Source of the DNA: Chloroflexia bacterium
GTDB taxonomy: Bacteria > Chloroflexota > Chloroflexia > Thermomicrobiales > CFX8
Length of the DNA stretch: 64,000 nucleotides
NCBI GenBank assembly: GCA_030431755.1
Contig: JAUIIK010000005.1
Location: 2,801 to 66,800 of the forward strand
Reading direction: 5' to 3'
The position numbers and the translations under genes were made by a program. This document shows positions 20,218 to 55,962 of the stretch, in pieces (positions within the stretch are counted from its first letter, which is position 1; every line of letters starts with the position of its first letter). The notes beneath the pieces were generated by a model. The model had not been told where the DNA came from. It worked only from the letters and a program-made list of their open reading frames with translations, and did not search any database.

Positions 20218-20255
20218 GGGTGAGTTTGTAGTTTGTAGGTTGTAGTTTGTAGGAA
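20217..20255. repeat. repeat family A arm (GGGTGAGTTTGTAGTTTGTAGGTTGTAGTTTGTAGGAAG)
   Basis: Closely related copies at 31268-31299 (same orientation) and at 31369-31405 and 55931-55962 (reverse). Confidence 0.8.
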
Positions 20256-30069: not shown

Positions 30070-30726
30070 CTACTCGCCGTCGAGCGCCGCCCCAAAGCGG
30101 CGTTCCGCGCGCTCCAGCGCGTCGGCCAGCTTCTGCTGCTGTAGCGCGACCGTCAGATCGCCACGTGTGCGCTCGAGGACGCCGCGCGCCATGTCCGTCG
30201 ACCGGCGCAACCCGCCGGTGACCGCGTCCGGATAATCTACGGTAACGAGCAGGCTATAGATGTCATCCATCACGCCCAGGGTCTCCTCTGCGCGTTCCAG
30301 GTCGCCACGGCGCATCGCATCCAGCGCGTGCCGGCGCAACTCCCCGGCGCACTCCGCTAGGCCGTTGAGATAGACGGCATCCTCGACGCCCAACGCCTCG
30401 GGATCCGCCAGCGGCCGCCCGGCGAGCAAGGCCAGCGTCAGATTCGCCTCGGCGAACTCCTTCTGCGCGTCGCGGACATAGCCGGACCAGTAGATCGACG
30501 GGAAGCCTTCCAGCTCCGCCGTCAGGTCGACGAGCATCCCTCGGGCGCGGGCGATCAGTTCGCCGGACTCGTCGAAGTCGCTGCGGTGCGCCGCGCGGAT
30601 GCTGTTCGCGCTGAGCCGGACGATCTGGCGGGTTTCCGCCAACGCCCGTTCCCTTGCTGCATTAATCCCGTCGAGGTTGTTCAGGATACGTTCACCATAG
30701 GCATTCAGATGTGAGGCGATGGACAT
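30070..30726 (-). CDS. translin family protein
   Basis: 218 aa from the ATG at 30726. All-helical, with a YLNGLAECAGELRR block resembling the translin YL.GL.D..GEL.R motif. Confidence 0.6.
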   Translation of the reverse strand: MSIASHLNAYGERILNNLDGINAARERALAETRQIVRLSANSIRAAHRSDFDESGELIARARGMLVDLTAELEGFPSIYWSGYVRDAQKEFAEANLTLALLAGRPLADPEALGVEDAVYLNGLAECAGELRRHALDAMRRGDLERAEETLGVMDDIYSLLVTVDYPDAVTGGLRRSTDMARGVLERTRGDLTVALQQQKLADALERAERRFGAALDGE

Positions 30727-31106
30727 GTTTGTTCGTTCTCCAGACCAGGCAGAGTCTCTGGAGCCACCGAGACCCGGCCAGCTTTGCGCAAAACGCAGAC
30801 GTTTCGCTACGGAACTGACGCTGTGGCCACACGGCAACGACCAGAGCGGCCAGAATTGACGAAGCGGCGACGCGCTGGTACGCTAGCGACGTGCAGTCAA
30901 CAGCATCGGCGACTTGTCTATGTTGACACACAGGCTATGATTGGGAGTAGTAGGTTCCGGGACAGCGAGCCGCCGGTTGGTGCGAGGCGGTATCAAAGGG
31001 ACCGAACTCGCCCGGGAGCCGTGGATGTGAGCCCAGCCGGGCAGCATCCGCCGGAGTGCCACCGTTAGCGGGCAAATGAAGCGGGTCAGACCGCGCGACA
31101 GACCAC

Positions 31107-31182
31107 GGGGCTGTAGCTCAGCTGGGAGAGCGCAACACTGGCAGTGTTGAGGTCAGGGGTTCGAGCCCCCTCAGCTCCACCA
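31107..31182 (+). tRNA. tRNA-Ala (anticodon GGC), CCA encoded
   Basis: Hand-folded full cloverleaf: 7-bp acceptor stem with G3:U70, D stem GCUC/GAGC, anticodon loop CUGGCAG, T arm AGGGG-UUCGAGC-CCCCU, discriminator A, CCA at 31180-82. Confidence 0.9.
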
Positions 31183-31227
31183 CAATCCCTGTCGCACACC
31201 GGCTGACCAAGCAGGGTGGTACCGCGG

Positions 31228-31266
31228 AACCTTTCGTCCCTGATCGGACGGAAGGTTTTTCTTTTA
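31228..31266 (+). terminator. intrinsic terminator of the T-box leader
   Basis: 12-bp stem AACCUUUCGUCC / GGACGGAAGGUU (one G.U pair), loop CUGAUC, followed by UUUUUCUUUU. Confidence 0.85.
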
Positions 31267-31267
31267 A

Positions 31268-31405
31268 GTTTGTAGTTCGTAGGTTGCAGTTTGTAGGAAA
31301 TCCTGCCGGTACTTCTCCCCTCTCCCAGCATTGGGAGAGGGGCCGGGGGTGAGGGACTTCCCTCGCTCTTCCTACAAACGACAACCTACGAACCACAAAC
31401 TCACC
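31268..31405. repeat. composite repeat family A element (32-bp inverted arms around a GC-rich core) inserted in the leuS 5' UTR
   Basis: Arms are GTTTGTAGTTCGTAGGTTGCAGTTTGTAGGAA (31268-99) and its near-complement (31369-31400). The core has an 11-bp hairpin CCCCTCTCCCA/TGGGAGAGGGG and a GGGGGTGAGGG box that is also seen at 55913-24. Confidence 0.8.
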
Positions 31406-31437
31406 AGACGAACTCACTGAACTGAAAGGAATGCTCA

Positions 31438-34221
31438 ATGGTCGTCAGCGAAAAAGCAGCCAGCCAGAGCGAACGTTACAATCCCGACGCCATCGAGCAG
31501 AAATGGCGCGACCGCTGGGCGGAAGCCAAGCTCTACAAGTGGCGGCCGGAAGAGACCAAGAAGCCCCGCTGGTACGCGATGACGATGTATCCCTACCCGA
31601 GCGGCGACCTGCACATCGGCCACTGGTACGCAATGTCGCCGTCGGACGCCGCCGCCCGCTACAAGCGCATGCAGGGCTACAACGTCTTCTTCCCGATGGG
31701 CTTCGACGCCTTCGGGCTACCGGCCGAGAACGCCGCCATCCGCAACCAGATCCACCCATACAAGTGGACGCTGGCGAATATCGAGAACATGCGCCGCCAG
31801 ATGCGCTCGATGGGCACGATGTTTGACTGGGATCAGGAGGTCGTCACCTGCGACCCTGAGTTCTACAAGTGGAACCAGTGGTTCTTCCTCCAGTTCTATA
31901 AGAACGACTTGGCCGTCCGAAAGGAAGCGCCGGTTTGGTGGTGCCCGCAGTGTCAGACAGTGCTGGCCAACGAGCAGGTCCTCGACGGCGGCTGCGAACG
32001 TTGCGGCACCGAGGTCTACCAGCGCAACATGACCCAGTGGTTCTTCAAGATCACCGACTATGCCGACGAGCTGCTGGACTTCAGCGAGATCGACTGGCCC
32101 GATCCCGTCCGCATCATGCAGACCAACTGGATCGGCCGTTCCGAAGGCGCGAACGTCACCTTCCAGCTGGAGACCGGCGACGAGATCGAAGTCTTCACGA
32201 CACGGCCCGATACGCTCTGGGGCGCAACCTTCATGGTCCTGGCGCCGGAGCACCCGCTGGTCGACAAGCTGACAACGCCAGAACAGCGCGACGAGATCGA
32301 CAAGTACAAGGCCGAGGTTGCGCGGCGGACCGAGATCGCGCGCCAGTCGACCGAAACCGAGAAGACCGGCGTCTTCACCGGCGGCTACGCGACCAACCCG
32401 GTCAACGGCGAGCAGATCCCGGTCTGGATCGCCGACTACGTCCTGATGAGCTACGGAACCGGCGCGATCATGGCGGTCCCGGCTCACGACGAACGCGACT
32501 TCGCCTTCGCGCTGAAGTACGCGCTGCCGGTCGTCCCGGTCATCCGCCGCAACGACGGCCTGACCCGCGCAATGGTGTTGGAGTCGATGCTCGAGGATCG
32601 GCCTTCCTTTGAGGTTGCGATGGTTGAAGGCAATTACGCCTATGACGAGACCGAGGTCGGCTTCGAGATTGCGCTGGGTCCTGAGAAGGTCGACGACTTC
32701 CTGACGCTGGCCAGCAAGCATGCCCGTGACGGCGGCGTCATTGGGTATATCGGCGCTCGCACCGGGGCGGTCTTCCAGGATGAGATCGTCGAGCTGGATT
32801 CGGTCGATGGCGACCGCAAGATCGCCGATTGGGCCGGCACCTGGACGGCAATGGAATTCCTGACCGGCCTGCCCTTCCTGGATGAGATCGCGTTCCACAA
32901 CGAATACGGCACGATGATCAACTCCGGCGAGCTGAGCGGCACATCCGGCGCGGAGGCCGTCGCCACAACCAACGCCTGGCTGGAGGAACGCGGGACCGGC
33001 CGCGCCGCCGTGACCTACCGGCTGCGCGACTGGCTAATCAGCCGCCAACGCTATTGGGGCACGCCGATCCCGATGATCTACTGCGATGAGTGCGGCATCG
33101 TCCCGGTGCCTGAGGAGGATCTGCCGGTGCTGCTGCCGGAGGATGCCGAGTTCAGCCCGACCGGCGAATCGCCGTTGCGGACGCACCCGGACTTCCTGCA
33201 CGTCGAGTGCCCGAACTGTGGCGGCGACGCCCGGCGCGAGATCGACACAATGGACACCTTCGTCGACTCTTCCTGGTATCAGTACCGCTACCTGAGCCCG
33301 CACCTGGACAGCGCGCCTTTCGACAACGACCTGTCCGAGCGCTGGATGCCGGTCGATCAGTACACCGGTGGCCGCGAGCACACGGTCATGCACCTGCTCT
33401 ACACGCGCTTCTGGACCAAAGCAATGCGCGATTGCGGATTGGTGCGCTTCAACGAGCCCTTCAAGCGGCTGGTCAACCAGGGCTTCATCCTGGGCGAGGA
33501 CAGCGAGAAGATGTCCAAGAGCCGCGGCAACGTCGTCGACCCCGATGATCTAGTCGACTCGCTCGGCGCGGACACCGTCCGCCTCTTCCTGATGTTCATG
33601 CGGCCGTGGGACATGACCGGCCCCTGGGACAATCAGGGCGTCACCGGTGTGCGTCGCTTCCTGGACCGCGCCTGGTCGGTCGTCGTCGATACCGTCGACA
33701 ACACGGCAGACGGGGCCGCCTCGCCCGATAACGTGCGGAGCCTGCAGCGGCTGACCCACCAAACCCTGCGCGAGGTGACGAAGGATGTCGAGGCCTTCAG
33801 CTGGAACACGATGGTCGCCAAGCTGATGGAGTTCGTCAACGAGCTGATGAAGCTGAAGGATGAGCCCATCGCCGGCAGCGACGCCTGGAAGGAAGCGACA
33901 AAGACGCTGACGCTGATGCTGGCGCCCTCCGCTCCGCACATCGCCGAGGAGCTGTGGGCGCGCCAGGGCTTCGAGTTCAGCATCCACGACCAGCGCTGGC
34001 CGGAGTACGACGAAGAGCTGGCCGCCGACGACGTCATCGAGATCCCGGTCCAGGTCAATGGCAAGGTCCGCGGCCGCATCACGATCCCGGCCGGCGCAGA
34101 TTCCGCCGCCGCCATCGCCGCTGCGGGCGCCGACGAGAACGTCGCCCGCTACCTGGCCGACGGCGCAATTGCCAAGGAGATCTACGTCCCCGGCCGCCTG
34201 GTCAACTTCGTCGTGCGATAG
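31438..34221 (+). CDS. leuS: leucine--tRNA ligase
   Basis: 927 aa with HIGH-type motif (GDLHIGH), KMSKS, the CP1 editing domain (TTRPDTLWGATF, AVPAHDERD), and an extra segment of about 100 aa after the editing domain. Confidence 0.95.
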   Translation: MVVSEKAASQSERYNPDAIEQKWRDRWAEAKLYKWRPEETKKPRWYAMTMYPYPSGDLHIGHWYAMSPSDAAARYKRMQGYNVFFPMGFDAFGLPAENAAIRNQIHPYKWTLANIENMRRQMRSMGTMFDWDQEVVTCDPEFYKWNQWFFLQFYKNDLAVRKEAPVWWCPQCQTVLANEQVLDGGCERCGTEVYQRNMTQWFFKITDYADELLDFSEIDWPDPVRIMQTNWIGRSEGANVTFQLETGDEIEVFTTRPDTLWGATFMVLAPEHPLVDKLTTPEQRDEIDKYKAEVARRTEIARQSTETEKTGVFTGGYATNPVNGEQIPVWIADYVLMSYGTGAIMAVPAHDERDFAFALKYALPVVPVIRRNDGLTRAMVLESMLEDRPSFEVAMVEGNYAYDETEVGFEIALGPEKVDDFLTLASKHARDGGVIGYIGARTGAVFQDEIVELDSVDGDRKIADWAGTWTAMEFLTGLPFLDEIAFHNEYGTMINSGELSGTSGAEAVATTNAWLEERGTGRAAVTYRLRDWLISRQRYWGTPIPMIYCDECGIVPVPEEDLPVLLPEDAEFSPTGESPLRTHPDFLHVECPNCGGDARREIDTMDTFVDSSWYQYRYLSPHLDSAPFDNDLSERWMPVDQYTGGREHTVMHLLYTRFWTKAMRDCGLVRFNEPFKRLVNQGFILGEDSEKMSKSRGNVVDPDDLVDSLGADTVRLFLMFMRPWDMTGPWDNQGVTGVRRFLDRAWSVVVDTVDNTADGAASPDNVRSLQRLTHQTLREVTKDVEAFSWNTMVAKLMEFVNELMKLKDEPIAGSDAWKEATKTLTLMLAPSAPHIAEELWARQGFEFSIHDQRWPEYDEELAADDVIEIPVQVNGKVRGRITIPAGADSAAAIAAAGADENVARYLADGAIAKEIYVPGRLVNFVVR

Positions 34222-55845: not shown

Positions 55846-55962
55846 CCTCCCCCTCTCCCCGCGTAGCGCAGCGAAGCAGTGGGCGGGGTACCCGCCTAGC
55901 GGGTCGCGGGACGGGGGGTGAGGGCGGCTGTTCTCCTACAAACTACGCACTACAAACTACCC
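55846..55962. repeat. repeat family A element (CCCCTCTCCCC ... GGGGGGTGAGGG ... reverse arm)
   Basis: The sequence at 55931-62, TTCTCCTACAAACTACGCACTACAAACTACCC, is the reverse complement of the family A arm. The core boxes match those at 31315-31356. Confidence 0.7.

Follow-up and report, generated by a model that had tools for sequence, protein, structure and literature searches.

A tRNA-Ala(GGC) gene nested in Stem III of the leuS T-box leader of Chloroflexota and other bacteria

In the thrU-tyrU-glyT-thrT-tufB operon of E. coli, tRNAs are co-transcribed with the mRNA of a translation protein and are freed by RNase P and 3′ processing. Processing punctuation by tRNAs or tRNA-like elements is known from the tRNA punctuation of mitochondria and from the mascRNA of MALAT1. 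T-box leaders (Rfam family RF00230), of which the transcriptional leaders of B. subtilis leuS, tyrS and glyQS are canonical examples, sense tRNA. In these leaders, only the ends of Stem III (5′-RRRxG ... AA-3′) serve the discriminator, and the stem-loop itself is variable (PMC11404447, PMC7583486). A 2020 review describes insertions in the discriminator, including in Stem III, and for translational T-boxes reports them in Stem III and helix A2 (PMC7583486). For the staphylococcal glyS leader, the report on stem Sa indicates that extra RNA is tolerated in the discriminator, clear of the conserved termini (PMC9177973). The present analysis concerns the leuS leader within a 64,000-nt stretch of a Chloroflexia bacterium (GenBank assembly GCA_030431755.1, contig JAUIIK010000005.1), which is called the window in the following and on whose + strand numbering all window coordinates are given. 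This leader is a T-box that carries a complete gene for tRNA-Ala(GGC) at the tip of its Stem III. The T-box and the tRNA gene are each classical, while their nesting is unexpected and conserved. Probably, the locus is one transcription unit, in which the leader senses tRNA-Leu and doubles as the precursor of tRNA-Ala(GGC).

The first-pass annotation of this DNA was not aware of a T-box with such an architecture, and full-text literature searches agree with it, since neither a tRNA gene within a T-box nor a functional gene threaded through a riboswitch helix was found described; older comparative surveys lay outside these searches, which leaves a smallish risk of a prior mention. Likewise, the TBDB paper and the recent T-box papers searched make no mention of a tRNA gene inside a T-box.

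The T-box leader and the tRNA gene within it

Against positions 30600-31500 (901 nt, E-value reporting), the RF00230 covariance model aligns from its first to its last position with 88.7 bits (E = 8.6e-20), and model positions 1-104, the Stem I part, do so with high posterior probability. A single large insertion of 113 nt interrupts the alignment in the loop of Stem III, and it encloses the whole tRNA. In the 64 kb of the window ARAGORN finds a single tRNA, which is this tRNA-Ala(GGC) at 31107-31182, and the Rfam tRNA model scores it with 64.4 bits (E = 1.1e-11, threshold 29). The gene 3′ of the leader is leuS, in agreement with the specifier amino acid Leu. Both elements are present and intact, and the features of the locus are the following.

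30856-30884, +, predicted leader promoter (from conservation): -35 TTGACG 30856-61, 17-nt spacer, extended -10 TGgTACGCT 30876-84
30928-31244, +, T-box leader, full Rfam RF00230 model 1-219 (covariance model)
30933-31020, +, Stem I with K-turn, specifier loop, AG bulge and distal loop (covariance model and sequence)
30933-40 with 31016-20, +, K-turn: G30933-C35/G31018-C20, bulge UAU, tandem G39.A17/A40.G16 (sequence and covariance model)
30946-49, +, S-turn AGUA of the specifier loop, facing GAA 31004-06 (covariance model and sequence)
30964-68, +, AG bulge AGCGA
30975-85, +, distal loop
31007-31009, +, specifier codon CUC (Leu), followed by the purine G31010 (covariance model)
31021-31067, +, Stem II, IIA hairpin (31052-64) and F-box CCGUUA (31062-67) (covariance model)
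31079-31101, +, Stem III 5′ side: AAGCG 31079-83, GGUCAG 31084-89, CCG 31091-93, GCGACAG 31095-101
31107-31182, +, tRNA-Ala with anticodon GGC (31140-42), G3:U70, A73 and encoded CCA (ARAGORN and Rfam)
31189-31210, +, Stem III 3′ side: CUGUCGC 31189-95, CGG 31200-02, CUGACC 31203-08, AA 31209-10
31213-26, +, T-box sequence AGGGUGGUACCGCG with UGGU bulge 31217-20 (covariance model)
31226-31265, +, intrinsic terminator, hairpin 31226-59 (stem 12-14 bp) and U run; overlaps the antiterminator and is mutually exclusive with it
31235-41, +, antiterminator 3′ strand CGUCCCU (covariance model)
31438-34221, +, leuS, leucine--tRNA ligase, 927 aa (TIGR00396, 1000.3 bits against a cutoff of 548)

All T-box elements listed by the first-pass annotation, from the K-turn to the antiterminator, are recovered in the RF00230 alignment and in the sequence, and its overall call, a leuS T-box with a nested tRNA-Ala(GGC), is one on which RF00230, ARAGORN, the Rfam tRNA model and TIGR00396 agree. 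It had also described a 7-bp helix (31095-101/31189-95), which is indeed present. In one respect it has to be corrected, namely that the tRNA stands where Stem III should be. Stem III is present, the 7-bp helix is its distal extension, and it is the terminal loop that the tRNA replaces. By the covariance model, basal Stem III is formed by GGUCAG 31084-89 and CUGACC 31203-08 and carries the flanks of the family, AAGCG on the 5′ side and AA on the 3′ side, which correspond to the RRRxG and AA ends. The whole helix of the window comprises 6 + 3 + 7 bp (16 bp), and its 7-bp extension is partly kept in two relatives (L113, L045). For the terminator hairpin RNAfold gives -18.1 kcal/mol. A minimum free energy fold of the whole leader recovers the terminator and the 7-bp helix but no clean cloverleaf; such folding is not informative for a kinetically folded RNA.

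Defining Stem III as the longest contiguous helix would be circular as a test of pairing and was not used for the final one. Here, the register was set from the flanks and blind to pairing, taking the six nucleotides that follow AGNG and the six that precede AANNN-GGGUGG, for the basal 6 bp of 63 distinct relatives (378 cells). Pairing is found in 74.6% of the cells, compared with 53.4 ± 1.7% when the partners are shuffled, a level that 0 of 500 shuffles reach, and with 27-41% when the partner strand is slid. Double changes occur in 111 cells (41 ± 8 in the shuffles), all six pairs have changed on both sides, and a separate script gave a similar covariation picture. The flank rule mis-registers the Ktedonobacteria, which lowers the paired fraction. 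Variants of the helix include GGUCAG/CUGACC, GAUAGG/CCUAUC, GGUGGC/GCCACC, GACAGG/CCUGUC and GGUAAA/UUUACC. By its covariation, the helix that closes around the tRNA is real. Across the relatives, the tRNA is joined to Stem III by linkers of 0 to more than 30 nt (2-9 nt in the Bacillota members). The tip of Stem III is a natural cargo site, as only the ends of the stem contact the discriminator and the loop is free to vary in length and sequence.

The tRNA itself is conserved in the features by which a tRNA-Ala is recognized. The anticodon is GGC in all 81 nested cases known from other genomes, G3:U70 is kept in 66/66 cleanly parsed copies, the discriminator is A73, and the acceptor pairs 4, 6 and 7 display compensatory changes (G-C/C-G; U-A/C-G/A-U; G-C/A-U). 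CCA is encoded in about 47 of the 66 parsed copies; the remaining copies, roughly a quarter, lack it, as is expected for real genes matured via CCA addition and as is seen for ordinary tRNA genes. Position N(-1), directly 5′ of the tRNA, carries U in 51 of 76 copies; another 20 have C and 5 have A, and G never occurs, against a local background of 21% T and 32% G. U(-1) is reportedly a known leader preference of bacterial RNase P, as Zahler et al. are said to have found in 2003. Over its full length (76/76) the tRNA is identical in the window, L113 and L045, whose flanking helices differ, and all invariant tRNA alignment columns are kept across these three and L011. Because G3:U70, A73 and the GGC anticodon are kept, the acceptor changes are compensatory and U(-1) is enriched, the sequences favour a working tRNA gene and not a mimic.

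Elements of tRNA shape that are used solely as processing signals do exist, mascRNA being an example, and the insert could accordingly be thought of as a tRNA-shaped structural element or a pseudogene. This is scarcely credible here in view of the invariant anticodon and G3:U70, the A73, the compensatory stem changes, the occurrence of CCA-less copies and the full identity of the tRNA between differing flanks. The same evidence divides the proposal of the first-pass annotation that the cloverleaf acts as a scaffold extending Stem III: it does sit on a genuine and covarying Stem III, but it is conserved as a real tRNA and not merely as a shape. A pairing in cis of the ACCA end of the nested tRNA with the UGGU bulge was considered as well and is not a conserved feature, since about a quarter of the parsed relatives have no encoded CCA.

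The Rfam tmRNA model also matches the nested tRNA, in the window and in many other loci, at 39-45 bits and thus below its gathering score of 47, presumably through the alanine-tRNA-like domain of tmRNA. By clan competition, the tmRNA row sometimes replaces the tRNA row in Rfam output tables.

Recurrence of the nesting and variant layouts

One genome per species (GTDB) was scanned for T-box sequences that a generic tRNA T-arm precedes at a distance of 30-60 nt (GTTCRANNCC...GGGTGGNACCRCG). The scan returned at least 120 loci, and all counts derived from it hold among the matches listed. A tRNA is present at the scanned site in 78 of the 120 loci, and in 78/78 it is tRNA-Ala(GGC). The N-terminus of leuS follows downstream in 74 of these 78; the other 4 probably run into the end of the contig or of the fetched locus. 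The specifier reads GAA-CUC-R in essentially all of 76 aligned relatives (MAFFT, 5′ halves), and a strong hairpin with a U run directly follows the T-box sequence in 72 of 79 class members. Three further nested cases (L126, L136, L146) come from a LeuS-based metagenome sample, so that the arrangement is conserved in at least 81 other genomes. In some related leuS leaders the insert is absent.

The carriers belong to Chloroflexota (Thermomicrobiales, Sphaerobacteraceae, Ktedonobacteria, Anaerolineae, Caldilineae, Thermoflexales, Limnocylindria), to Bacillota (Syntrophomonadaceae, Peptococcaceae, Thermoanaerobacteraceae, Thermacetogeniaceae, Desulfitispora, Desulfotruncus) and to genomes labelled Atribacteria and Armatimonadota, which makes at least four phyla (Chloroflexota, Bacillota, Atribacterota, Armatimonadota). 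Among them are the cultured Desulfotruncus alcoholivorax DSM 16058 (L021, whose T-box scores 130.7 bits), Desulfitispora alkaliphila DSM 22410 (L094) and Tengunoibacter tsumagoiensis Uno3 (L077); Thermosyntropha lipolytica DSM 11003 (L069) is a probable further carrier, its sequence being truncated at the edge of the locus. The LeuS of the window is nearest to that of Thermomicrobiales/Chloroflexia metagenome-assembled genomes, with 83-84% identity. Chance is excluded by the two E-values, for T-box and tRNA, together with the recurrence in at least 81 independent assemblies. An assembly artefact or a mobile element is ruled out by more than 80 assemblies, and the reading frames examined beside the leader suggest no mobile element.

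For 22 relatives, the RF00230 scores lie between 54.9 and 130.7 bits; with the window counted in, 93 bits are reached by 10 of 23 members. Therefore, pipelines that apply the RF00230 gathering cutoff would miss about half of the tested members, and leuS regulation in Chloroflexota and related groups may be under-annotated at this threshold.

Among the matches listed, no other tRNA was found nested in this way: the 42 that lack a tRNA either fit the pattern by chance or belong to ordinary T-boxes, and ARAGORN at a relaxed threshold returned only noise. Among the ordinary Chloroflexota T-boxes, which hold no tRNA, two precede a trpE-like gene with a UGG specifier (L022, L028) and one precedes pheS with a UUC specifier (L039). 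About 200 nt upstream of the nested leuS T-box in L146, the opposite strand encodes a c-di-GMP-I riboswitch (887-973, - strand, 84.4 bits).

For 80 LeuS loci from metagenomes, picked by the protein and not by the leader, the state of the leader was scored. The nested form occurs in 3 of the 80 (the three cases named above), and in another 3 (L121, L180, L200) Stem III of the leuS T-box is a plain hairpin, while most of the sampled loci have neither T-box nor tRNA. In L121, a close LeuS relative, the leuS T-box (1219-1444) has a plain 5-bp Stem III and there is no tRNA within 1.5 kb. In L123, another close LeuS relative, a complete CUC T-box (280-492) whose Stem III is plain precedes leuS at a distance of about 1 kb, and tRNA-Ala(GGC) (48-121) stands upstream of this T-box. 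In three further loci tRNA-Ala(GGC) directly precedes leuS without a detectable T-box (L139 1282-1357, L158 1307-1382, L157 1367-1441). In L158 an extended -10, TGgTACAAT, stands 8 nt before this tRNA, and downstream of the tRNA in L157 comes CUCGUCCC-uaa-GGGAUGAG-U7, a hairpin that looks like the leftover of a T-box terminator. When the LeuS N-termini are ordered by a rough neighbor-joining tree, carriers of the nested form make up large blocks of Chloroflexota and Bacillota, in which the remaining states are interspersed. An old origin of the nesting, followed by losses of either part, would fit this picture, but the tree is crude and horizontal transfer may have contributed.

From the tRNA-Ala(GGC)-leuS linkage without T-box in L139 and L158, and from L157 with only its terminator-like hairpin, it could be argued that the tRNA-leuS operon is what counts and that the T-box is a decaying relic which no longer regulates, and the position of the window T-box under the gathering threshold would suit this as well. 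We regard this as very improbable, since the K-turn, CUC specifier, elbow platform, F-box, RRRxG/AA ends, UGGU bulge and exclusive terminator are intact in the window and across phyla and Stem III covaries; the deficit in score is attributed to the insertion penalty, with relatives reaching 130.7 bits.

A different role for the tRNA is possible, although doubtful: it could be active in the switch, either as a co-transcriptional timer or as a processing signal for RNase P/RNase Z, by which Stem I would be cut off from the discriminator and the leuS mRNA would receive a defined 5′ end protected by a hairpin. The nesting persists in at least four phyla and despite about 50% divergence of LeuS, and the insertion is always at one site, immediately before the decision point. 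Furthermore, transcription of the B. subtilis glyQS leader reportedly undergoes a major pause around Stem III (as Grundy and Henkin are said to have described in 2004), and the thrS leader is said to be cut just upstream of its terminator with stabilization of the read-through mRNA (reportedly by Condon et al. in 1996). On the contrary, lineages within the carrier blocks of the tree have lost the Stem III tRNA and kept the T-box (L121, L123) or lost the T-box and kept the tRNA (L139, L157, L158), the linkers vary as widely as described, and the persistence could simply reflect the difficulty of relocating an essential tRNA gene without its own promoter. If the tRNA were active, leuS output would be tied to the tRNA-processing capacity.

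Transcription of the locus and proposed mechanism

The promoter position is conserved. In an alignment of the window with L113, L045 and L011 (LeuS 71-84% identical), TTGACG and TGgTACGCT form two invariant blocks while the surrounding upstream DNA has diverged; the -10 hexamer is 30879-84 and the promoter lies about 40 nt before Stem I. By its conserved motifs, this is predicted to be a promoter of the extended -10 sigma-70 type. In the same alignment, nothing promoter-like is conserved in the interval between F-box and tRNA. The only match of a promoter scanner, TTGTCT-16-TATGAT at 30914-41, lies inside Stem I, is not conserved and was rejected.

In 17 Chloroflexota loci, a tRNA-Ala(CGC) on the same strand stands just upstream of the leuS leader (L004, L007, L023, L032, L035, L049, L053, L073, L077, L078, L087, L092, L093, L103, L107, L109, L110), as it does in L126 and L136.

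Seven loci of the Anaerolineae/Caldilineae type (L049, L053, L073, L078, L087, L103, L110) have a TTGACA-17-TAnnnT promoter, then tRNA-Ala(CGC), and then Stem I after only about 5-30 nt (the T-box model starts 5 nt after the tRNA in L049 and 9 nt after it in L073). The promoter before tRNA-Ala(CGC) is the sole one there, and because a separate leader promoter cannot be fitted into the gap of 5-30 nt, co-transcription is forced. In these seven loci, the 5′ half of the riboswitch serves as the spacer of a two-tRNA operon.

It is improbable that two independent units overlap here, the tRNA having its own promoter inside the leader and sharing the terminator of the T-box, with little tRNA coming from the leader promoter. 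The extended -10 before the T-box-less tRNA in L158 would speak for this, and the Ktedonobacteria show that extra promoters can arise at this place. No -35/-10 pair is conserved from F-box to tRNA in the clade of the window, however; in Bacillota, with 2-9 nt between Stem III and tRNA, there is no place for a promoter other than within the structurally constrained sequence of IIA/B and Stem III; and in the seven loci just described Stem I abuts the upstream tRNA.

For the single transcription unit preferred here, the following course can be proposed. The sigma-70-type promoter at 30856-30884 would drive a transcription-attenuating T-box leader that starts near 30890. Stem I and Stem II would be made first, and tRNA-Leu(GAG) would be caught via the CUC specifier and the Stem I platform. 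Next, the 5′ strand of Stem III and then tRNA-Ala would emerge, and local folding of the tRNA would join the two strands of Stem III. The UGGU bulge of the discriminator, which is composed of Stem III and the antiterminator, would then test the 3′ end of tRNA-Leu. Uncharged tRNA-Leu would stabilize the antiterminator and RNA polymerase would enter leuS; otherwise, the hairpin 31226-59 would end transcription. The insert would add about 110 nt of transcription time before this decision. Each leader transcript, whether terminated or read through, would be a pre-tRNA-Ala(GGC); cleavage by RNase P and 3′ maturation would free the tRNA from it, so that the output of tRNA-Ala(GGC) would be constitutive and that of leuS on demand. 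Excision would split the leader in two, and the new 5′ end of the leuS mRNA would lie shortly before the terminator hairpin.

The idea of the first-pass annotation that transcription from the leader promoter yields the tRNA, which is then cut out of the leader, is favoured by the single conserved promoter, by Stem I abutting an upstream tRNA and by the U(-1) leader. Its further suggestion, a link between Ala and Leu decoding supply, found no direct support; what stands is that tRNA-Ala(GGC) is linked to leuS also without a T-box and that tRNA-Ala(CGC) often lies just upstream. This linkage of tRNA-Ala genes (GGC, often CGC) with leuS is old and unexplained, and it outlives the loss of the riboswitch.

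Some observations weigh against a single, dual-purpose transcription unit. The 88.7 bits of the window T-box remain below the RF00230 gathering score of 93, and a default Rfam search of the whole window at gathering thresholds reported the tRNA alone and missed the T-box; the 113-nt insertion probably accounts for this shortfall. The relatives with a plain Stem III, with the tRNA upstream or with the tRNA only imply that nesting is not obligatory for either part. In the Ktedonobacteria, the upstream tRNA is separated from Stem I by a conserved promoter (TTGCAA-17-TATAGT), which shows that the promoter layout varies from lineage to lineage. A weak internal promoter may be present in the window. 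Finally, co-transcription in the lineage of the window, cleavage by RNase P and tRNA-Leu-dependent read-through are deduced from the sequence.

An extension of the proposed mechanism, which we consider unlikely, would be a composite switch, in which co-transcriptional folding of the pre-tRNA-Ala and its processing by RNase P/Z time the tRNA-Leu decision and turn the leader into two RNAs, which would set where the leuS mRNA begins and how stable it is. If true, LeuRS synthesis would be gated by the charging of tRNA-Leu and by the capacity for tRNA maturation, and the expression platform would include a processed gene.

Downstream of the leader, an imperfect inverted repeat (31255-31413) lies between the T-box terminator and the start of leuS. 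Its 45-nt arms are 82% complementary, are composed of GTTTGTAG-like units and enclose a perfect 11-bp hairpin (31317-42). The arm motif is also found at 20224-20249 and 55939-55957, with 5 matches in the window compared to 0 expected. It looks like a small dispersed element, similar to miniature inverted-repeat transposable elements or repetitive extragenic palindromes (MITE/REP-like), inserted in the leuS 5′ untranslated region. The window LeuS itself, with 927 aa, is longer than the bacterial model TIGR00396 (843 positions), which is matched in two stretches, and the LeuS of some Chloroflexota relatives has an extra precomputed Pfam match (PF12773 or PF01406). This suggests a lineage-specific insertion.

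Comparison with known systems

If each leader transcript is a tRNA precursor as proposed, attenuator leaders that are constitutively made and mostly terminated can be a production line for an essential RNA. In addition, the relatives represent a natural experiment, spanning phyla, on the amount of cargo that the T-box discriminator can take at Stem III, and bear on whether the transcription time between the capture of tRNA and the decision matters.

Compared with canonical transcriptional T-box leaders, the window has the same modules in the same order. The difference lies in the Stem III loop, which holds a 76-nt tRNA of another amino-acid identity together with its linkers, 113 nt in total, and in the scores, as only about half of the tested nested members come up to the gathering score. 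The insertions in glyS stem Sa and in translational T-boxes are simple helices without a gene product, whereas here a complete gene for a translation component is inserted. As with mascRNA, the mitochondrial tRNAs and the cleavage of B. subtilis thrS, excision would cut the leader and leave a 5′ end before a stable hairpin. In contrast to the punctuation elements, the nested tRNA is a genuine decoding tRNA. The loci with an upstream tRNA-Ala(CGC) resemble mixed tRNA-mRNA operons such as thrU-tyrU-glyT-thrT-tufB; there, however, the tRNAs are separate upstream modules, while in the leuS leader the riboswitch that governs production of the mRNA has tRNA-Ala(GGC) threaded through one of its helices.

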